A DNA stretch of 28,423 bases, taken from positions 1 through 28,423 of IMG/VR virus record IMGVR_UViG_2537562173_000011; one strand, written 5' to 3'. This document shows, piece by piece, positions 1 to 26,100 of this stretch. The position numbers and the translations under genes were made by a program. The stretch comes from a virus (Duplodnaviria > Heunggongvirae > Uroviricota > Caudoviricetes). Positions within the stretch are counted from its first letter, which is position 1. The number at the start of each line of letters is the position of its first letter. The notes under the pieces are model-generated. The model saw nothing but the letters and a program-made list of their open reading frames with translations. It had not been told where the DNA came from and did no database searches.

Positions 1-1158
1 ATGCTCACCGTTAAGCAGATTGAAGCAGCAAAGCCGAAAGAAAAACCATACCGCCTACTCGATGGTAATGGCCTGTACCTTTATGTCCCTGTATCAGGGA
101 AAAAGGTATGGCAGCTTCGCTACAAGATTGACGGTAAGGAGAAAATCCTGACCGTCGGAAAATATCCACTTATGACTTTGCAGGAGGCAAGAGATAAAGC
201 ATGGACCGCGAGGAAAGACATCTCGGTTGGCATCGATCCGGTAAAAGCGAAAAAGGCTTCGTCTAACAACAATTCCTTTAGTGCGATTTACAAGGAATGG
301 TACGAGCACAAGAAGCAAGTCTGGTCAGTAGGCTATGCAACTGAACTTGCAAAAATGTTTGATGACGACATTTTACCTATCATCGGCGGCCTTGAAATTC
401 AGGATATTGAGCCGATGCAACTGCTGGAAGTAATCCGCAGATTTGAAGATCGCGGTGCAATGGAGCGAGCCAACAAAGCCCGCAGAAGATGCGGCGAGGT
501 TTTCCGTTACGCTATTGTCACTGGTAGGGCTAAATATAACCCGGCACCTGACCTTGCTGACGCCATGAAGGGATACCGCAAGAAGAACTTCCCGTTTCTT
601 CCTGCAGACCAGATCCCTGCATTCAACAAAGCACTGGCAACATTTTCAGGAAGTATCGTATCGCTCATTGCGACCAAAGTTTTACGCTACACAGCCCTAA
701 GAACGAAAGAGCTTCGTTCCATGCTATGGAAGAACGTCGATTTTGAAAACAGGATTATCACCATCGACGCCAGTGTGATGAAGGGACGCAAAATTCATGT
801 GGTCCCGATGTCAGACCAGGTGGTTGAACTTCTCACTACGCTAAGCTCCATCACCAAACCAGTATCAGAGTTTGTTTTTGCCGGGCGCAACGATAAGAAG
901 AAGCCAATCTGCGAGAACGCAGTTCTACTTGTGATCAAACAAATCGGCTATGAGGGTCTAGAAAGCGGTCACGGATTCAGGCATGAATTCAGCACGATTA
1001 TGAACGAGCACGAATGGCCTGCTGACGCTATTGAAGTGCAACTGGCACATGCCAACGGCGGATCTGTGCGCGGTATTTACAACCATGCTCAGTATCTCGA
1101 TAAGCGCAGAGAAATGATGCAGTGGTGGGCGGATTGGCTTGATGAGAAGGTAGAGTGA
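1..1158 (+). CDS. intS: Tyrosine recombinase, P4/IntS-family prophage integrase (385 aa, full length)
   Basis: ATG at position 1; the 385-aa translation matches what I recall of E. coli CPS-53/KplE1 IntS (argW-targeting). The C-terminal catalytic region (HGFRHEF ... HANGGSVRGIYNH) is typical of tyrosine recombinases. Confidence 0.9.
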   Translation: MLTVKQIEAAKPKEKPYRLLDGNGLYLYVPVSGKKVWQLRYKIDGKEKILTVGKYPLMTLQEARDKAWTARKDISVGIDPVKAKKASSNNNSFSAIYKEWYEHKKQVWSVGYATELAKMFDDDILPIIGGLEIQDIEPMQLLEVIRRFEDRGAMERANKARRRCGEVFRYAIVTGRAKYNPAPDLADAMKGYRKKNFPFLPADQIPAFNKALATFSGSIVSLIATKVLRYTALRTKELRSMLWKNVDFENRIITIDASVMKGRKIHVVPMSDQVVELLTTLSSITKPVSEFVFAGRNDKKKPICENAVLLVIKQIGYEGLESGHGFRHEFSTIMNEHEWPADAIEVQLAHANGGSVRGIYNHAQYLDKRREMMQWWADWLDEKVE

Positions 1159-1309
1159 TCCGCCTTAACAACTATCGAAGAGCACAAAGCCTTGTGTGTC
1201 TCATAGGCTATGAAACAATCATTTTACATGGTTACTTCACTACTTCCGCACAATATGATATCGTTCACAATCTAAAAACATTAATAATTTATCCATTACC
1301 GCGGTTAAT

Positions 1310-1336
1310 GCCCGTCGCTTCCAACGGGCTTTTTTG
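1310..1336 (+). terminator. Rho-independent terminator downstream of int
   Basis: Hairpin gcccgt-cgcttcca-acgggc followed by TTTTTT, beginning about 150 bp after the int stop. Confidence 0.5.
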
Positions 1337-1397
1337 TAAATTATATTTTTATTACCTTATATTAATATTGGTAATATGTCTGCATGATGTTTTATAT

Positions 1398-2153
1398 TTA
1401 TTGCGTGAGCTTCGCATGATAGCTGGAGCATCTCTTGTCATCACTAATTAGCTCCGCTTTATCCGTTCTTGCCCATATTATATTTCTTTTTATTATTTTT
1501 GCTGGATTACCGGCTGCTGCACACATAGATGGCACATCTTTAGTTACAATACTCCCATACCCAATGACAGATCCGCTTCCAACAGATACTCCTTTCATTA
1601 TAGAGACATTTCTCCCTACCCATACGTAACTAGATATAATGATATCTTTTGCCCAATTAATCCTTTTTTTGCTATGAATATCAAATATAGGATGCCCATC
1701 TGATGCACGCAAAATAACATCTCTTGCTATCATGCAGTCATGGCCAATTGTAACATTGCACTTATCAGTGACGACTTCAAAACCTGCACCTATTGTCGTT
1801 CTTCTACCGATAATAACTTTTGAACCTTTTGTTGCGACAATATCACCTTTAATCTTACTGTTTTTATGTATTCTTACGTAATTATTATCACCCCTAAATA
1901 TTACGGTAAGCCATCGACACTCAACATCATCTTCTATAATAAGTTTGTTATTGTTTCCATTGAACTGAACTTTATTCTCTTTGCTATTTACAAGATCTCC
2001 ACATACAAAAACATTACCTGACCCATTATCATCAACGGAAAACGAGTCTTGAGTCTTGAGTCTTGAGACTTGAGTCTTGAGGCTTGAGTCTTGAGTCTTG
2101 AGTCTTGAGACTTGAGTCTTGAGGCTTGAGTCTTGAGTCTTGAGTCTTAACAT
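1398..2153 (-). CDS. neuO: Polysialic acid (K1 capsule) O-acetyltransferase, hexapeptide-repeat family, phase-variable
   Basis: 251-aa ORF starting at ATG 2153. N-terminus is built from RLKTQDS-type heptads encoded by AAGACTC repeats; the rest has left-handed beta-helix acetyltransferase character (IGAGFEVV, VGSGSVIGYGSIV). AT-rich, sits between int and tailspike as in CUS-3. Confidence 0.85.
   Translation of the reverse strand: MLRLKTQDSSLKTQVSRLKTQDSSLKTQVSRLKTQDSFSVDDNGSGNVFVCGDLVNSKENKVQFNGNNNKLIIEDDVECRWLTVIFRGDNNYVRIHKNSKIKGDIVATKGSKVIIGRRTTIGAGFEVVTDKCNVTIGHDCMIARDVILRASDGHPIFDIHSKKRINWAKDIIISSYVWVGRNVSIMKGVSVGSGSVIGYGSIVTKDVPSMCAAAGNPAKIIKRNIIWARTDKAELISDDKRCSSYHAKLTQ
2044..2148 (-). 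repeat. Heptanucleotide VNTR, 15 tandem units (coding strand 5'-AAGACTC-3') at the 5' end of neuO
   Basis: Counted directly: 15 contiguous 7-bp units, 11 perfect AAGACTC plus 2 AAGCCTC and 2 AAGTCTC, arranged as a 42-bp super-unit. 15 is a multiple of 3, so the ORF reads through in frame (ON state). Confidence 0.95.
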
Positions 2154-2306
2154 ATTAGTATCCTACGTTATTTTACCACTAGTTACTTTTCTTGTCATTA
2201 AAAAGCATTTAAATTTTTATATTTAATTTCGTTGACGTCAATGTTTTTTGCCAATGTACTTACTTCTTTATGTGATCAGTTCATATTTTTGACGCCAACG
2301 AAACAT

Positions 2307-5252
2307 TTAGTGCTTCCCTTCTATTAAGTCTAACCTAGCTTTTATTCTTTCTATTTCTCTGCGCTGCCATGCTGCCTCGATATAGAATAAGAGATCAGGT
2401 CTGACCCCCCATCTAGATCCTGCTGGCGTTATTTCAACGCGCTCAATGATGTCTTCCATTACCATCACTGGATTATCATCCTCATCAACAATGATGCTCC
2501 CGTCATTATCAGTCAGCGGCATTTCCCTTTGGCCAGTAATGACGTCATCATATACTGCGGGATAATCGTCATAGCAAAGAAAGGCATAGCGGCATGTTGT
2601 GCTTTCTTCTTCCATGAGTCCGTGAGAAATAAGAACATCACGAAGTTGCTGCGCGATTACACCATGATGTATCCTCGCCCCTTCTTCCCCCTTTATAGCG
2701 ACAGCGTTCAGCCATTTATAAGCGATATACCTGACGTCACCCCAGGCATCCAGCAATGTTTCGTCAGGAGAGACCGGCTCTGTCTTTAATGTTCCGTCAC
2801 TGGTAACCACAGGATTGGAGCCAAGATAAACTATCGAGAACCTGTTTCCCGGACCACCAAGAGCATTTACATTATCAAGATAAGGTTTAACATCTCCGTT
2901 CTCAAAAAGATGTTCGAGTGCGTTATATACCGCGCGACGTGGAGTACTGCTTCTGGAACCATGCAACGTTATCATTGCACCATCTGCTGAAGACGTTGTT
3001 TCACCGCCGCTAACGATTAATCTCTGAGCGGTAACATCATCAGACGGTACTTTCTTCGCAATAATGGCGTAATTACCCTCAAGTTTGACTTCCGCGCGAA
3101 CTTGTCCTGATGTACCTGCATGGACAGTCAGTGACTGGACGGCAACATCATCTGTGAAATCAACGGGTACAGGAACCGTCCTCACGCCTGACGTCGACAT
3201 AAAAGTAGGAAGCGTTCTGTTAGGAGTGGCTCCGTAGACAAAATCCCTTGAAACAAATTCTTCCTGTTTAATTTTCACCCTGAAACAATACAAATCAGCC
3301 GGGTGACCATCGTGAACATAAGGATATTTTCTGTTGTTATCCCCTATGCTCCATGGGTTTAGAAAGTCTTCCCCACCGAAAATGTAGTACAGCCAGTTGT
3401 CTTTGATACAAACTGAACCAACACCAACCGCAGAGTTAACTATTCCGCCCTGATAAATCTGATCAGTAACATTAACCCACTCTACATTATCCAGACTCCA
3501 CTCATTGACGTTAACTCTGGTCATAAATGTTCTTGGATAGTTTCCTGCATAACGGTTATCAGGTTCTCCTCCTTCCCACTCACCAAATGCGCGCTCACTG
3601 CCAAAAATAATCAGCTCATCGCCAACTTTGGCAAAAGGAAGGTTTGAGTGATGAACATTATTTGGGAAGCGAAGAGAATTCCATGATGTACCTAAATCAG
3701 AGCTTCTGTGCAATGAACTACCGGGTTGAGTACTTAATGTCCCCCTGGTCGTCAGATACAGAATGCCATCATAATATTTTACACATGGCTCAGATGCATT
3801 CGCCTCATATTCTGCAGGTATGCGTCTGCGAACAAAGCTACCAGGAGAACCGAAAGCATCAGAGAAATAGAGTATCCCAAGCTCGCGTGGACCAATATCA
3901 CCATTATGGTAGCCAACAGCAAAACTGTTATCGCTAATCGTCGCAAAACTGTGAATCTCAGTAACAGGAGTGCTTCCGTCAACAAAAGAAGGAATAGTTC
4001 CAAGACTGGTTTTTCTCCATGGTGACGAGTGAAATGATGTACCAAAACTCCAGTATCTACCCTCGTTATTCTGATCCACATCCTGGGTATTTTGCGTCGT
4101 AACTGTAAAAGTATTTTTATCAATAACAGTAGTCACCGTCATATTCCCGGTAACACCTGTAACACCAGAGTTTGAGAAGTTGACAAAATCACCAGCAAAT
4201 AATCCGTGATCAGTAATGCGAATATAAGCGACTTGCTGATTTGCTGCTTTCGTTATACCACCATAAACGCGAAGGCTGCGACTCATTGGGCGATCCCACA
4301 ACTCTGCAACCTGCAGTTTATTTCCGCTCACGGTCCGCGTCTCAATTACAGCAAAAAGGCGATTTCTGACAACCCCCATACTCATGCAGTGATAGTTAAC
4401 TGTGGGATAGTTTTCATGTAAATCTGTAAGCCATTCCGGCGTTGTCCAGGTCTTCCCGTCATCTCCTGAGCGAACCCATGCAACATGGAGGTTATTTACA
4501 CCATGGCGGTCCCCAGCCATAAAAGGCGCATAGATGACATTGTCATATACAAACGTTTTATCCTGCGTCCAGGCGTTGTACCACGGTGTATCTGTAATTT
4601 TAAATAACTCTCCCTGGATAAAATCTTCAGAAACATAAAAAAGAGGCTGACCCGGTATTCTCTCAAATAAAAAACGAGCATTTTTAAATCGACTGACATC
4701 TGGAAGAGTTGATACTTTAAAAGTAAGCCCTCGCCCATCTATCTTTTCACCACCTGTTGCAACAGAAAGTAATTCTGATAGAGCTGATGTATCATCATGA
4801 ACACCATCACCAATAGCCCCCCAACCTCTTACATCATAACTGTCTCTCCATCTTGCTATCTGAAGTTTTGGGTATTTATTCGCTCCATCTGGGTCTTCTA
4901 ATTGCTGCCGTAGTTGATCAGGATCATACTTCAGCACATTCTGGAAATAGAACTGCTGTACGCCATACGCATCGTACACAGCCATAGAATGGCCTTGCAC
5001 AGTTACGAACTTGGCAATCCGTCCGTTATATACAGGGTAACCAGCAGCGTTAATGATGATTGGTTGCGAAACAGGAACGTGAGAGCCGTCTTCGTTCTCT
5101 ACATAAACCTGAATCCGGTTTTCAGGATTTACCGGGTCAGTGTCAATTTTACCGATATAAATTTTGCCATTGGCTACGGCTTTAAAAGAACGCGCCATAG
5201 TGAAGAGTTGCGAAGGCATCGATACAATCACATTGGCTGTAATGTCTGTCAT
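2307..5252 (-). CDS. Tailspike with P22 gp9-like head-binding N-terminus fused to an endo-N-acetylneuraminidase (endosialidase)
   Basis: 981 aa. N-terminus MTDITANV...[13 protein letters not shown]...VLKYDPDQ is near-identical in pattern to the P22 tailspike head-binding domain; the remainder is consistent with K1-phage endosialidase tailspikes. Position next to ant matches P22 gene 9. Confidence 0.85.
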
Positions 5253-5308
5253 TTAATTTGCTCCAGATGCAAAGAATCGCCGCAGCATGGCCACGGTGAA
5301 TTTTGGGC

Positions 5309-5334
5309 ATAAAAAAACCCAGCCGAAGCTGGGT
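5309..5334 (-). terminator. Rho-independent terminator between ant and tailspike
   Basis: On the minus strand: hairpin cccagc-ttcg-gctggg followed by a T7 run, located between the ant stop (5353) and the tailspike start (5252). Confidence 0.55.
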
Positions 5335-5352
5335 CGTTGCGTTGGTTATCTG

Positions 5353-6255
5353 TCAGTAATTATGTACTGAAGGAGGTAATTCTTTATTCTTAAGTCTCAT
5401 CCATGCGGAAAGATTCGTTGGTCCGTCTGGCTCATTGATATCAACATCTCGTGTGTGATTGATTAAAACGTCTCTCGCCATATCGATAATACGGGAGAAC
5501 TCATAACCGCAGTCATGACATCTGCCGGAATAGTTCGATTGAATTTGTTTTAGCGCCGGATACAGTTCGCGGAATAATGCCTGTGAGCGGTTGGCATAAT
5601 CCCATAGCCATACAAGGCTGTTTGCTTCTTTTGCAGAAAGCTCGTTGGTTTTCTTCTCTTGTTTGCCGATGAACTCACCTTCAAGCACTACCCTGTGGAT
5701 GTACTCTACTGCTTGTGGTATCTGAGATGCATCAAGCTCTTCAATACTTTCCACATTGAAACGCTGATGAATCATTGCATAAGCTTCTGGGTACATTAGA
5801 TGCTTTTTGCTGACTAGCATATTTACAGCATCACGAAGCGGAGTCCTGTCATCAACAGATGTTTTCTTCCGTGCATTTGCTGCCTCTCCCTTTGTCCAGT
5901 AGTCATGCAGCACAGTAAAGCATTCTTCCTGGTACTGAATCAGTTTATCGCGGATGTCAGCACGAACTTTCTCAGGGTTGATGCTGAACAGCCATCCATT
6001 TAACTTCTTCAAAGGAAGGCAGAGTAGCTTACGAAGCTTACCATCAGCGGCAACCATGTTCATATGAACACAGTTGAATTTGCTAATCTGCTTCATGAGT
6101 TTTGTTTGCTGCGTTGACCAGCTCATTCCGAGGTTTTCAACGATTGGCTTCATCGCAACATATGCAACTCCGGCAGCCATGGCGGTGATAATTTGCTGAC
6201 CGTTGAATGGCACGTAAGAGGTGTTCACTGCTTCTAAAATTGCTATACTATTCAT
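5353..6255 (-). CDS. ant: Antirepressor Ant (immI)
   Basis: Position immediately upstream of the tailspike and downstream of arc, as in P22 immI. I chose ATG 6255 ([10 protein letters not shown]...); the track's longer ORF begins at a GTG at 6321 just after an in-frame stop. Confidence 0.75.
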
Positions 6256-6487
6256 GTTGGTTTTTCTCCACGGATTTACCGACAACCGAAGCCCTGACTG
6301 TTCCAGCAGTTGGGGCTTCACTGTTTTGATTTCTTTGCCGCATCAAGCATCACTTCTGAAAACGTGCGCTTGCCACTGAATACTCTTTCTCTTCTCAATT
6401 TTTCGTTCGTGCCAAATGATTCGCCATGAACAAAATTTGGTCTTAAAATGGTAATCGCAATCTCTTTGACTACTGCATCCAAGCGAA

Positions 6488-6754: not shown

Positions 6755-7003
6755 ATGGCAAAGGGTGTGTCAATTTCTCCAACTACGGTAAGAATCCCTG
6801 AATCTTTACGCGAGGCTCTTGCTGTCAGAGCATCAAAAAATGGTCGCTCTGTTAACTCCGAGATCGTCATGATTTTGCAAGCCGCGATTGATGAAGATAG
6901 GTCGCCAAAGTCAGTTGAGTCATTTGCTCAGCAAGAAGCTGATAAATTCAAAGAGGCGCTACTTGAGACGCTAAAGACCATGTATGCTAAGGATGAAAAA
7001 TAA
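6755..7003 (+). CDS. mnt: Mnt-like ribbon-helix-helix maintenance repressor
   Basis: 82 aa from ATG 6755 (SD AAGGTG). ...RIPESLREALAVRASKNGRSVNSEIVMILQAA... resembles P22 Mnt; length and divergent orientation relative to arc match P22. Confidence 0.75.
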   Translation: MAKGVSISPTTVRIPESLREALAVRASKNGRSVNSEIVMILQAAIDEDRSPKSVESFAQQEADKFKEALLETLKTMYAKDEK

Positions 7004-7539
7004 TGCTGCACACAATTCATTTCTTATGCCCTGTTAACACTGCCACTGTTGGGCAACTTCAGAACCACTGTCTCACCGCATTATCTCAAGGCGCAACTGA
7101 ATTAAATATCCATATATCAAGTCAGGGAGGGGAAACTGCTGCTGGCTTTACTGCGTATAACTTTCTTAAGTCACTCCCTGTTACCGTTAGAACTCACAAC
7201 ATAAGCAATGTTGAATCCATAGCTAATATCGTTTTCCTGGCTGGCTCAGAACGTTTCGCAAACCCATTATCAAGATTCCTGTTACATCCTCTATTATGGT
7301 GCTTTGCCTCCCCAGCCGCCGACCATGCCAGATTGAGAGAGTACGGGAAATGCCTCGATAACGATCTTGATCGCTTCGTTGAGACGTTCAATATCGACAT
7401 CGGAACCCATATTAGGTGGGCATCCCTGATAGCAGACTCGACCATTTTGGATGCTAACAAGGCTCTTGAGCATGGCATAATTAATTCCATAAAAACTGCA
7501 AGGCTGGCATCCAATCAGGCAAACTGGTGGGTTGTTTGA
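7003..7539 (+). CDS. ClpP-fold (S14-like) serine protease homolog, 178 aa, translationally coupled to mnt
   Basis: Start ATG overlaps the mnt stop (TAATG). HISSQGGETAAGFTAYNFL...ISNVESIANIVFLAGSERF...SRFLLHPLL aligns by eye to the ClpP core (INSPGGVITAG...GQAASMGAFLLTAG...RVMIHQP), with Ser, His and Asp at the catalytic-triad positions. Confidence 0.6.
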   Translation: MLHTIHFLCPVNTATVGQLQNHCLTALSQGATELNIHISSQGGETAAGFTAYNFLKSLPVTVRTHNISNVESIANIVFLAGSERFANPLSRFLLHPLLWCFASPAADHARLREYGKCLDNDLDRFVETFNIDIGTHIRWASLIADSTILDANKALEHGIINSIKTARLASNQANWWVV

Positions 7540-24846: not shown

Positions 24847-25082
24847 CTTCTACTCCGGCTTTTTTAGCAGCGAAGCGTTTGATAAGCGAACCAATCGAGT
24901 CAGTACCGATGTAGCCGATGAACACGCTCGTTATATAAGCGAGATTGCTACTTAGTCCGGCGAAGTCGAGAAGGTCACGAATGAACCAGGCGATAATGGC
25001 GCACATCGTTGCGTCGATTACTGTTTTTGTAAACGCACCGCCATTATATCTGCCGCGAAGGTACGCCATTGCAAACGCAAGG
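24830..25082 (-). pseudogene. S: Holin S (lambda type), lacking its native N-terminus and start codons
   Basis: From ...[45 protein letters not shown]... to the C-terminus the translation matches lambda S, but the first ~24 codons ([24 protein letters not shown]) are replaced by the foldback/homopolymer junction. Confidence 0.8.
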
Positions 25083-25139
25083 CATCGGGGCAATCCTTGC
25101 GTTTGCAATGGCGTACCTTCGCGGCAGATATAATGGCGG
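25038..25139. repeat. Perfect 45-bp inverted repeat (foldback) with 12-bp spacer
   Basis: Left arm 25038-25082 is the exact reverse complement of right arm 25095-25139; both are holin S codons ~22-40, once in each orientation. The plus-strand copy plus spacer reads [21 protein letters not shown]. Confidence 0.95.
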
Positions 25140-25167
25140 GGGGGGTGTAAAAAAAAAAAAAAAAAAA
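25138..25167. repeat. Homopolymer tract G8-TGT-A19
   Basis: Read directly: gggggggg tgt aaaaaaaaaaaaaaaaaaa, between the foldback repeat and the argE-derived sequence. Confidence 0.95.
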
Positions 25168-25170
25168 TCC

Positions 25171-26022
25171 CCGCCATTTATCGAGATTTACCGTGCTCTG
25201 ATTGCCACACCTTCAATAAGCGCCACGGAAGAGGCACTCGATCAAAGCAATGCAGATTTAATCACTCTGCTGGCGGACTGGTTTAAGGATTTAGGCTTCA
25301 ATGTGGAAGTACAGCCTGTGCCAGGAACTCGCAACAAATTTAATATGCTGGCCAGTTGCGGACAGGGGGCTGGCGGTTTGTTGCTGGCGGGGCATACCGA
25401 TACGGTGCCATTTGATGACGGACGCTGGACGCGCGATCCATTTACGTTGACGGAGCATGACGGCAAGCTTTACGGCTTAGGCACCGCCGACATGAAAGGC
25501 TTTTTTGCGTTTATCCTTGATGCGCTACGCGATGTCGACGTCACGAAGCTTGCAAAACCGCTCTACATTCTGGCGACTGCCGATGAAGAAACCAGTATGG
25601 CCGGAGCGCGTTATTTTGCCGAAACTACCGCCCTGCGCCCGGATTGCGCCATCATTGGCGAGCCAACGTCGCTGCAACCGGTACGCGCGCATAAAGGTCA
25701 TATCTCTAACGCCATCCGTATTCAGGGCCAGTCGGGCCACTCCAGCGATCCAGCACGCGGAGTTAACGCTATCGAACTGATGCACGACGCCATCGGGCAT
25801 ATTTTGCAATTGCGCGATAACCTGAAAGAACGTTATCACTACGACGCGTTTACCGTGCCATACCCTACGCTCAACCTCGGGCATATCCACGGCGGCGATG
25901 CATCTAACCGTATTTGCGCTTGTTGTGAGTTGCATATGGATATTCGTCCGCTGCCAGGCATGACACTCAATGAACTTAACGGTTTGCTCAACGATGCATT
26001 GGCTCCAGTGAGCGAACGCTGG
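25171..26022 (+). pseudogene. argE: Internal fragment of acetylornithine deacetylase gene argE (about codons 6-289), no start codon, truncated 3' end
   Basis: Translation [62 protein letters not shown]...SERW matches E. coli ArgE as recalled; homology is lost after SERW, followed by VGL-stop. Confidence 0.85.
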
Positions 26023-26059
26023 GTGGGCTTGTGATGGTTGCTGAATGCAAAAGCAGCAG

Positions 26060-26100
26060 CATATGTGAATATTATGGCTAAATGGCTAATTGCATGTCAA
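26060..26100 (-). promoter_or_regulatory. Candidate late promoter pR' (sigma70-like TTGACA-N18-CATAAT) overlapping the 3' end of Q
   Basis: Minus-strand TTGACAtgcaattagccatttagcCATAAT; directed toward the lysis genes, at the position where lambdoid phages place pR'. Confidence 0.35.

Follow-up and report, generated by a model that had tools for sequence, protein, structure and literature searches.

The region under study is almost certainly the integrase-proximal arm of a P22-like (Lederbergvirus) prophage of the CUS-3 type, integrated at argW in the chromosome of a K1-lineage E. coli, and in this prophage the tailspike would cleave, and the product of neuO would modify, the same capsule. Within the window (the whole stretch of 28,423 nucleotides that was analysed, from IMG/VR record IMGVR_UViG_2537562173_000011), the sequence was shown to share 98.4% nucleotide identity across 4.25 kb with phage CUS-3 (CP000711), the annotation of which carries int, neuO, siaK1 and ant, while the locus was present in at least 145 of 5,426 complete E. 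coli genomes. At the level of sequence, the domain and identity matches of neuO and the tailspike gene lie far beyond chance, and no evidence against the identification was found. Our own analysis covered gene identities, domain architecture, catalytic residues, frame state, synteny, mosaic boundaries and copy-number polymorphism, and the features located are listed in the table below.

Features of the int-neuO-tailspike-ant region, with positions in the window
Feature	Coordinates	Strand	Basis
Integrase, IntS/Sf6 type, 385 aa	1..1158	+	Pfam Arm-DNA-bind_3, Phage_int_M and Phage_integrase; 99% aa identity to Sf6 Int
GC-rich hairpin followed by a T-run, likely int terminator	1310..1329	+	Terminator scan
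neuO, polysialic acid O-acetyltransferase, 251 aa	1398..2153	-	PDB 3JQY match; neuO annotation in CP000711
Poly-psi tract, 15 heptanucleotide units AAGACTC	2044..2148	-	TRF: 15.0 copies of a 7-nt unit
Putative neuO promoter, sigma-70-like	2170..2198	-	ATGACA-17-TAAAAT, extended -10 TG, 10/12 matches, consensus only
Endosialidase tailspike, 981 aa	2307..5252	-	Pfam; 99% identical to CUS-3 SiaK1
Tailspike aa 818-981, C-terminal intramolecular chaperone (Peptidase_S74)	2310..2801	-	Pfam Peptidase_S74 at aa 818-878
Tailspike aa 146-817, endosialidase N-terminal extension, six-bladed beta-propeller and stalk	2802..4817	-	Pfam; alignment to endoNF 1V0E/3GVL
Tailspike aa 1-113, P22/Sf6-type head-binding (particle-attachment) domain	4914..5252	-	Pfam Head_binding, E 4e-64, 113/113 positions
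P22-type antirepressor Ant, neighbour upstream of the tailspike gene	5353..6321	-	Pfam P22_AR_N and P22_AR_C; 84% nt identity to P22 ant

The integrase gene is the immediate neighbour of the neuO cassette, and its transcription runs in that direction. In the source contig (L005) and in complete genomes, int adjoins the tRNA-Arg(CCU) gene argW, which falls outside the window because the window begins at the int ATG. The order int, neuO, siaK1 and ant at argW was the same in complete genomes, as in a CUS-3 prophage at this site. In several genomes, neuO was kept while the tailspike gene or ant was broken by an IS. Alignment to CUS-3 covered only 73% of the first 25 kb of the window, and in the late region the 5′ end of the holin gene and the Q-dependent late promoter region were found to be replaced by an argE fragment. 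The junction in this lysis region consists of a 62-nt inverted duplication, followed by G8 and A19 homopolymers and then by the 864-bp argE fragment; it was found in no other E. coli genome. Either the replacement is artefactual or the prophage is genuinely defective here, in which case expression of the tailspike within a functional phage may have ceased.

The initial annotation had placed neuO beside an endosialidase tailspike gene, and both open reading frames were recovered with the ends it had given (1398..2153 and 2307..5252, both on the minus strand), the former encoding NeuO, which is identical to PDB 3JQY outside the heptads, and the latter a protein 99% identical to SiaK1. The exact tailspike protein occurs on 646 contigs. 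Its proposed architecture, i.e. a P22-type head-binding domain joined to a polysialic-acid-cleaving domain, was borne out by a domain search, which returned six Pfam domains, with the head-binding domain at the N-terminus, the endosialidase domains behind it and the chaperone at the C-terminus. The head-binding domain matches PDB 1LKT, 2VKY and 7SG7, and the corresponding region exhibited 88% nucleotide identity to the 5′ end of Sf6 gene 14 and 71% to P22 gene 9. The endosialidase part was resolved into End_N_terminal (aa 146-212), End_beta_propel (aa 213-662, E 1e-233), End_beta_barrel (aa 324-406, inserted in the propeller, E 1e-46) and End_tail_spike (aa 663-817, E 7e-78). Endosialidase homology thus extends over the full catalytic part of the tailspike and is followed by the chaperone.

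Alignment of the tailspike to the endoNF structures 1V0E and 3GVL was gap-poor, and H250, R456, E488, R503 and R554 correspond to H350, R549, E581, R596 and R647 of endoNF (residue list from PMC12632334). PDB 3GW6 was shown to align to tailspike residues 698-979, and mature endoNF chains terminate exactly at the residue aligned with T817, indicative of a predicted self-cleavage between T817 and S818. Both S818 and K823 are present, which we take, from Schwarzer et al. 2007, to be the positions of the Ser/Lys dyad. With its propeller, barrel and stalk, active site and C-terminal chaperone, the protein carries the sequence features of a GH58 endoN-type tailspike.

The 251-aa product of the neighbouring gene matched Hexapep in Pfam (E 9e-11) and aligned to PDB 3JQY with an E value of 5e-157, being identical from the last heptad through the C-terminus, i.e. 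across the entire catalytic part. All active-site residues are present (M141, R144, H154, W178, R181, W227 and R229), which represent the published M134, R137, H147, W171, R174, W220 and R222 shifted by +7; of these, H147 and W171 are the catalytic His and Trp in the +12 numbering (PMC3046976). The protein therefore combines the three hallmarks of the NeuO family (a hexapeptide-repeat catalytic domain, the catalytic residues and N-terminal poly-psi heptads), and the enzyme is NeuO itself (3JQY) rather than a member of an unrelated acetyltransferase clade. Based on catalytic-domain identity to assayed enzymes (PMC3046976; PMC13001214), the gene product is predicted to O-acetylate polysialic acid in an acetyl-CoA-dependent manner. 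The earlier suggestion that a moron acetylates the polysaccharide recognized by the tailspike is consistent with this prediction, since the catalytic part is identical to that of the crystallized polysialic acid O-acetyltransferase 3JQY.

The gene is AT-rich, as previously noted, with a GC content of 0.37 (0.36 when the tract is excluded) compared with 0.47 for the window, 0.44 for the tailspike gene and 0.48 for int; the spacers flanking neuO have values of 0.34 and 0.28. The best promoter match in the region was located 17 nt 5′ of the neuO ATG, while promoter-like sites across the region were no more numerous than in shuffled sequence. The hairpin between the convergent int and neuO genes is likely to be the int terminator and may act bidirectionally; a minus-strand RNA fold at the same position was shown to contain the same 8-bp stem (z = -2.7). 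We infer the use of both promoter and terminator, as well as the behaviour of the interrupted neuO allele described below.

The description of neuO as phase-variable in the initial annotation holds for the gene family; it may not extend to the allele in the window, the repeat tract of which is interrupted. The tract starts immediately after ATGTT, and its 15 units encode five N-terminal heptads, leaving the frame open for 251 amino acids (phase ON). Features of a contingency locus were observed in that the repeats lie within the 5′ coding region and their copy number sets the frame, and in that copy number is polymorphic: 19 other, otherwise near-identical loci carried 8-32 units, with six in frame, while loci with 8, 11, 13, 14, 16, 19 or 32 units were out of frame and annotated as truncated or without a gene call. 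The in-frame proportion agrees with the ON fraction of 34% reported for 64 complete genomes (PMC13001214).

Conversely, the long uninterrupted tract of a contingency locus is lacking here. The sequence is AAGCCTC in units 4 and 10 (variant bases 2124 and 2082) and AAGTCTC in units 6 and 12 (variant bases 2110 and 2068); these four substitutions generate a perfect 42-bp super-period and, as a consequence, heptads 2 and 4 read SLKTQVS and the encoded heptads alternate between RLKTQDS and SLKTQVS. Because the longest perfect runs comprise three units, frequent ON/OFF switching should not be assumed for this allele. None of the 19 other neuO loci examined carried an interrupted tract, all being perfect; a perfect tract of 15 units is found, for example, in strain AH21I008.

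The substitutions may have damped the switch, such that, with runs of only three units, single-unit slippage (from ON to OFF) would be rare and the gene would be quasi-locked ON, whereas slippage of the 42-bp super-unit (six units) would keep the frame and retain hybrid RLKTQDS/SLKTQVS heptads. Interruptions generally stabilize simple-sequence contingency tracts, and the structure of the tract itself points in this direction; furthermore, its perfect 42-bp periodicity suggests a single origin for the two point changes, which slippage would later have duplicated, a pattern that speaks for a biological cause and against random errors. We nevertheless consider a damped switch rather unlikely, given the rarity of the allele. 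In addition to its absence from the 19 other loci, the exact 251-aa protein was recorded from a single draft-assembly contig only, and a short tract-spanning query against complete E. coli genomes met at least the four expected mismatches in every record that it covered in full. The motif AAGACTCAAGBCTCAAGACTC had no match in IMG/VR. In JGI metagenomes it was found in 96 stretches, 80 of which were listed as loci, and a version with N at the variable base was found in at least 120 stretches of GTDB genomes; in both collections, the loci fetched lacked a neuO flank and represent unrelated heptamer arrays in environmental bacteria.

The uniqueness of the allele is also what would be expected of a sequencing or assembly artefact in the source draft genome (E. 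coli cloneA_i1, assembly GCA_000233675.2), the true allele being an ordinary perfect tract. The same contig contains the argE junction described above, a pattern typical of chimeric assembly, and we regard an artefact as possible, though not probable. Against it, the substitutions affect the same base of the unit with a strict six-unit period, unlike random consensus errors, and misaligned reads of a perfect repeat would be unable to generate substitutions. A natural, stabilized neuO allele, in which two changes were fixed and duplicated as a 42-bp super-unit so that six-unit slippage would alter the enzyme dose and never switch the gene OFF, is in our estimation unlikely. If genuine, such an allele would make the locus constitutive and tunable, with altered SLKTQVS heptads, in place of a contingency locus that switches ON and OFF stochastically.

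The identification as a CUS-3-type prophage places this locus among known ones, being that of the well-studied CUS-3 prophage of E. coli K1. Its functional reading (a receptor-cleaving enzyme together with a phase-variable receptor modifier, resulting in superinfection exclusion) has been published and was experimentally tested in 2022 and 2026; it is from the literature that the activities of the enzymes, the mechanism of switching and the protection from phage are taken. In the proposed mechanism, the tailspike would attach to the virion via its Sf6/P22-type N-terminal domain, while the endosialidase propeller would bind and depolymerize the alpha-2,8 polysialic acid K1 capsule, the phage receptor; the C-terminal chaperone would fold the tailspike trimer and then be removed by a cut at S818. 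Immediately downstream of the tailspike gene, neuO occupies an AT-rich cassette of 1.2 kb, which has a putative promoter of its own, and would encode an acetyl-CoA-dependent O-acetyltransferase of the left-handed beta-helix type, by which the same polymer is esterified. Expression of neuO would be gated at translation, as slipped-strand mispairing of the 5′ AAGACTC repeats alters their copy number and full-length NeuO would be produced only from repeat numbers that are multiples of three, the 15 units found here corresponding to ON. A higher number of heptads increases the catalytic efficiency of NeuO, both the mechanism and this dose effect having been published (PMC3046976).

Acetylation would make the capsule less suitable as a substrate or receptor for phages specific to K1 and would alter host-immune interactions, so that the prophage may convert its host and lower superinfection in a reversible and stochastic manner. 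Lysogenic conversion combined with superinfection modulation, as proposed in the initial annotation, corresponds to the published view of CUS-3, and NeuO-dependent protection from K1 phage has been demonstrated (PMC9659370; PMC13001214): a neuO deletion mutant exhibited larger plaques and complete lysis (PMC9659370), and the protection phenotype was also shown with a locked-ON complement (PMC13001214). The published protection assays employed lytic K1 phages, and we found none in which the CUS-3 tailspike itself was used on acetylated polymer. The locus is a well-known case of a temperate phage that carries an enzyme destroying its capsular receptor along with a stochastic switch that chemically masks this receptor, which has a bearing on the virulence of K1 strains, on vaccine antigenicity and on phage therapy directed at neonatal-meningitis and ST95 E. 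coli. As all of this has been published, its rediscovery here contributes nothing general.

The adjacency of the two genes might instead reflect a general cargo slot without functional coupling, with neuO being kept mainly for the benefit of the bacterium (immune evasion, neutrophil resistance and desiccation tolerance) and phage exclusion being a side effect. The base composition of neuO differs from that of the tailspike gene (0.36 versus 0.44), and homology to the tail fibre gene of phage ZX5 ends 30 nt inside the 3′ end of the tailspike gene, which together indicate separate origins for the two genes. The retention of neuO in several genomes with an IS-disrupted tailspike gene or ant, and published host-interaction phenotypes (PMC8653822; PMC13001214), are also in line with such a slot. 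We regard this reading as rather unlikely, as two independent strain-phage pairs gave measurable phage protection (PMC9659370; PMC13001214), and as Sf6 likewise carries, in a slot with the same flanks, an acetylase that acts on its own receptor, arguing for recurrent functional pairing. The cargo-slot view and that of functional coupling, as published for CUS-3, are not exclusive.

Compared with other endosialidase-bearing phages, the endosialidase catalytic core, chaperone and catalytic residues are shared with K1F endoNF (PDB 1V0E, 3GVL) and with the tail fibre of Uetakevirus vB_EcoP_ZX5, the latter exhibiting 99.4% nucleotide identity over window positions 2339-4731. The N-terminal regions differ, being a T7-type adaptor in K1F (PMC5380687) and a 204-aa region without a Pfam match in the ZX5 fibre. 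No neuO was found within the 2.5 kb of annotated flank on either side of the ZX5 fibre gene. A classification of ZX5 as a lytic T7-like phage was ruled out, its record being that of a Uetakevirus with an integrase. OatWY of Neisseria meningitidis (PDB 2WLC), a sialic-acid capsule O-acetyltransferase, belongs to the same left-handed beta-helix fold family (E 1e-30) and has an active-site set in common with NeuO (PMC3046976), but it is chromosomally encoded, lacks the poly-psi heptad domain and acts on another polymer (serogroup W/Y).

The CUS-3 prophage of E. coli RS218 (CP000711) displays the same order of attL/argW, int, neuO, siaK1 and ant; its tract differs in comprising 19 units (OFF) as opposed to 15 (ON), the four tract substitutions occur only here, and the holin and late-promoter region of CUS-3 is replaced in the window. 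In P22, receptor-modifying cargo is likewise found between the integration module and the 3′ end of the gene for the tailspike, which has a homologous N-terminal domain (PDB 1LKT), and ant lies upstream of the tailspike gene. The initial annotation had assigned neuO to the slot in which P22 carries gtrABC, which is topologically correct and fails on orientation and attP position. In P22, gtrCBA and gene 9 converge, whereas neuO is co-oriented with the tailspike gene, and attP lies between gtrA and int, placing the prophage gtr and int genes at opposite ends, whereas the att core is found here on the far side of int. P22 also carries a different type of int, and its cargo mediates O-antigen glucosylation by three membrane proteins (gtrABC). 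P22 gtr varies in phase through an epigenetic mechanism (Dam/OxyR) and not through repeat slippage. Based on the P22 and Sf6 annotations, gtrABC was consequently rejected as the closest slot analogue.

The closest counterpart is Sf6 oac. Sf6 carries an endorhamnosidase tailspike (gene 14), the O-antigen acetylase gene oac (gene 15) and int (gene 16), and shares with the window the integrase (99% aa identity), the head-binding domain (88% nucleotide identity) and the order tailspike, receptor acetylase and int, with attP beyond int. In both cases, the acetylase modifies the polysaccharide that the associated tailspike cleaves. The two acetylases are unrelated, as Oac is a membrane-located Acyl_transf_3 enzyme whereas NeuO is a soluble hexapeptide-repeat protein; furthermore, oac runs in the direction of int and converges on the tailspike gene, the opposite of the orientation of neuO, it lacks a repeat switch, and the receptor concerned is O-antigen rather than capsule. 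A mosaic map against Sf6 showed that a block consisting of the catalytic part of the tailspike and the receptor modifier has been replaced between the conserved head-binding domain and int.

The initial annotation had placed neuO directly beside an endosialidase tailspike gene. Both ORFs were present with exactly the ends it had given, flanked by an integrase and an antirepressor gene, and the observation was confirmed in every particular. The 4.25 kb stretch at 1150–5400 of the window exhibited 98.4% identity with Enterobacteria phage CUS-3 of E. coli RS218, where the same genes are annotated as int, neuO (with a poly-psi domain of 19 heptanucleotide copies), siaK1 (endosialidase tailspike) and ant. 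Using a cut-off of ≥80% of this stretch, it was identified in 145 of 5,426 complete E. coli genomes, in which the genes are annotated as intS, acyltransferase, phage tailspike protein and Ant. Both in complete genomes and in the contig AEYT01000031.1, int adjoins tRNA-Arg(CCU), i.e. argW. Across the first 25 kb of the window, 73% of the length aligned with CUS-3, at 97.4%; the window represents a P22-like prophage of the CUS-3 type, showing mosaic differences of the usual kind.

Features of the neuO–tailspike locus, mosaic segments and lysis-region junction (window positions, or residues where marked aa)
Feature	Location	Strand	Details
Integrase gene	1..1158	+	Flanks the neuO/tailspike pair
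GC-rich hairpin	1310-1329		T-run follows it on + strand
neuO, polysialic acid O-acetyltransferase	1398..2153	-	251 aa ORF
Repeat tract	2044-2148		7-nt unit, 15.0 copies (Tandem Repeats Finder)
Putative promoter	2198-2170	-	ATGACA, 17-nt spacer, TAAAAT, upstream TG
Endosialidase tailspike	2307..5252	-	981 aa ORF
P22-type antirepressor gene	5353..6321	-	Flanks the neuO/tailspike pair
178-aa ORF	7003-7539	+	Beside arc/mnt-like immunity region
Head_binding	aa 1-113		Pfam, E 4e-64
End_N_terminal	aa 146-212		Pfam
End_beta_propel	aa 213-662		Pfam, E 1e-233
End_beta_barrel	aa 324-406		Pfam
End_tail_spike	aa 663-817		Pfam
Peptidase_S74 chaperone	aa 818-878		Pfam
Sf6 int match	1-1151		97% nt; protein 99%
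AT-rich neuO cassette	1152-2338		Without similarity to Sf6, P22 or ZX5; matched in CUS-3
Uetakevirus vB_EcoP_ZX5 tail fibre gene match	2339-4731		99.4% nt
Sf6 tailspike gene 5' end match	4915-5267		88% nt
P22 gene 9 5' end match	4914-5318		71% nt
Inverted duplication arms	25024-25082, 25095-25153		62-nt duplication
G8 and A19 homopolymers	25149-25167
argE internal fragment	25159-26022		864 bp, 99.7% identical

The proposed fusion of a P22-type head-binding domain to an endosialidase was borne out by a Pfam search, which identified six domains in the tailspike, including the chaperone. The protein is identical to SiaK1 at 975 of 981 residues, and its exact sequence occurs on 646 contigs. It aligned nearly without gaps to the coliphage K1F endosialidase endoNF (1V0E/3GVL), with H250, R456, E488, R503 and R554 corresponding to endoNF H350, R549, E581, R596 and R647, the catalytic and substrate-binding residues of a recent deep mutational scan (PMC12632334). 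Exchange of tailspike modules has been described with CUS-3 as an example, its P22-type N-terminal domain being joined to an endosialidase (PMC5380687). T817 aligned with the last residue of the mature endoNF chains and the Pfam chaperone model starts at S818, a predicted boundary that fits the known self-cleaving chaperone. K823 lies five residues beyond S818, and these two residues presumably constitute the dyad for the predicted cleavage.

The assignment of neuO also held, as its product is a hexapeptide-repeat transferase (Pfam) identical at every residue outside the N-terminal heptads to crystallised polysialic acid O-acetyltransferase NeuO (PDB 3JQY). When residue numbers are shifted by +7 from the structure paper (four heptads; PMC3046976) to the window protein (five heptads), catalytic H147 and W171 become H154 and W178, both of which are present; M141, R144, R181, W227 and R229 are also retained. 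The exact protein is on record for a single contig, AEYT01000031.1 of E. coli cloneA_i1, evidently the source of the window. The reported AT-richness was reproduced, with a GC content of 0.37 for neuO (0.36 without the tract) and 0.34 and 0.28 for its flanking spacers, compared with 0.44 for the tailspike gene, 0.48 for int and 0.47 for the whole window.

The strongest sigma-70-like site of the region, a putative promoter, has its end 17 nt upstream of the neuO ATG, and a GC-rich hairpin, a putative terminator, separates int from neuO, which are convergent; both represent consensus matches. A terminator scan detected no terminator-like site between the tailspike stop codon and neuO, so late read-through from the tailspike gene into neuO is conceivable. 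The host regulator DsdC activates neuO transcription (PMC9659370).

Slipped-strand mispairing of the AAGACTC repeats is known to alter their copy number; full-length NeuO is obtained only from multiples of three units, with three units adding one RLKTQDS heptad and catalytic efficiency increasing linearly with heptad number (PMC3046976; PMC8653822). In the window, the tract directly follows ATGTT at the 5' end of the ORF, and its 15 units place neuO in frame. The tract is imperfect, with units 4 and 10 reading AAGCCTC and units 6 and 12 AAGTCTC, while its 42-bp super-period is perfect and heptads 2 and 4 are SLKTQVS. At 19 other neuO loci (CUS-3, nine complete E. coli genomes and nine IMG/VR contigs), every tract consisted of 8 to 32 AAGACTC units without a variant; six of these loci were in frame, close to the 34% ON reported among 64 genomes (PMC13001214). 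Among complete E. coli genomes, none gave a closer match to the interrupted tract than would a perfect tract of 15 units, the interrupted motif was not found in IMG/VR, and the neuO flank was not found at any fetched metagenome locus carrying this motif. The interrupted allele is unique in the data reached and may have arisen as a draft-assembly error. If it is genuine, slippage by one unit is expected to be rare, since no perfect run exceeds three units, and slippage by the 42-bp super-unit would keep the frame; the switch would then be damped or quasi-locked ON.

Two neuO start contexts were observed, ATGTT plus repeats (M-L-RLKTQDS; window and CUS-3) and ATGTC plus repeats (M-S-RLKTQDS), the latter linked, in most of the nine loci listed, to a G-to-A substitution in the flank downstream. 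There are therefore at least two allelic lineages of neuO. AAGACTC/GAGTCTT tandem arrays, some with single-base variants, also occur in many unrelated environmental bacteria (metagenomes and GTDB genomes), including Planctomycetota, Acidobacteriota, Phycisphaerae, Gemmatimonadales and a Methylococcales sponge symbiont with several arrays; no neuO flank was found among the metagenome and GTDB loci listed.

The proposed role in lysogenic conversion and superinfection modulation agrees with published work (PMC9659370; PMC13001214). Cells that lose NeuO are killed more by K1 phage, which forms larger plaques and lyses them completely (PMC9659370), and protection is restored by a locked-ON complement, the authors' own term being superinfection exclusion by CUS-3 (PMC13001214).

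Homology to CUS-3 continues through the lysis genes and ends inside the holin gene at 25082, followed by an inverted duplication, two homopolymers, an internal fragment of chromosomal argE and 48 unmatched bases, before resuming at 26071, immediately ahead of Q. The junction within 25024–26070 was present in none of the complete E. coli genomes. Either the source contig is chimeric at this point through assembly, or the prophage has really lost the start of the holin gene together with the late promoter region and is hence defective, in which case the tailspike would no longer be part of a working phage in the source strain. Several complete genomes showed a decaying CUS-3 arm with neuO retained: ISEc52 splits ant in AH21I008, insertions of IS3-family elements or ISEc12 break the tailspike region of NCTC11151, FY26, ATCC 11775 and SF-088, and an IS3 element adjoins neuO in N32. 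In a matching genome, the 178-aa ORF carries the annotation ATP-dependent Clp protease proteolytic subunit, an unusual cargo for a P22-like immI region.

A mosaic map was obtained by local blastn against Sf6, P22 and ZX5. ZX5 carries the same endosialidase domains behind a different N-terminal part, indicating that this K1 module is also present in a second type of temperate podovirus, attached there to another N-terminal adaptor. Its tail fibre is 1039 aa long, shares the catalytic and chaperone part (ZX5 locus 2501-4893) and is accompanied by an integrase gene; in the protein cluster, a 1039-aa variant also occurs on 30 contigs. Homology to ZX5 ends 30 nt inside the tailspike 3' end, which, together with the different base composition of neuO, shows that the tailspike part and neuO have separate origins.

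The initial annotation had assigned neuO to the gtrABC slot of P22, of which the topology stood. The P22 order is ant, gene 9 (both +), gtrC-gtrB-gtrA (-), attP and int, so that its cargo is convergent with the tailspike gene and attP lies between cargo and int. In Sf6, the order is tailspike (+), oac (-) and int (-), with attP beyond int, and the CUS-3 att core is likewise on the far side of int; from these layouts, the closest counterpart is Sf6 oac rather than gtrABC. With this refinement the interpretation is supported, and it is already published and thus known. Compared with Sf6, a block comprising the tailspike catalytic part and the receptor-modifying gene has been swapped in the interval that runs from the conserved head-binding domain to int, with neuO inverted relative to oac, which encodes an O-antigen acetylase of the Acyl_transf_3 family, unrelated to NeuO.
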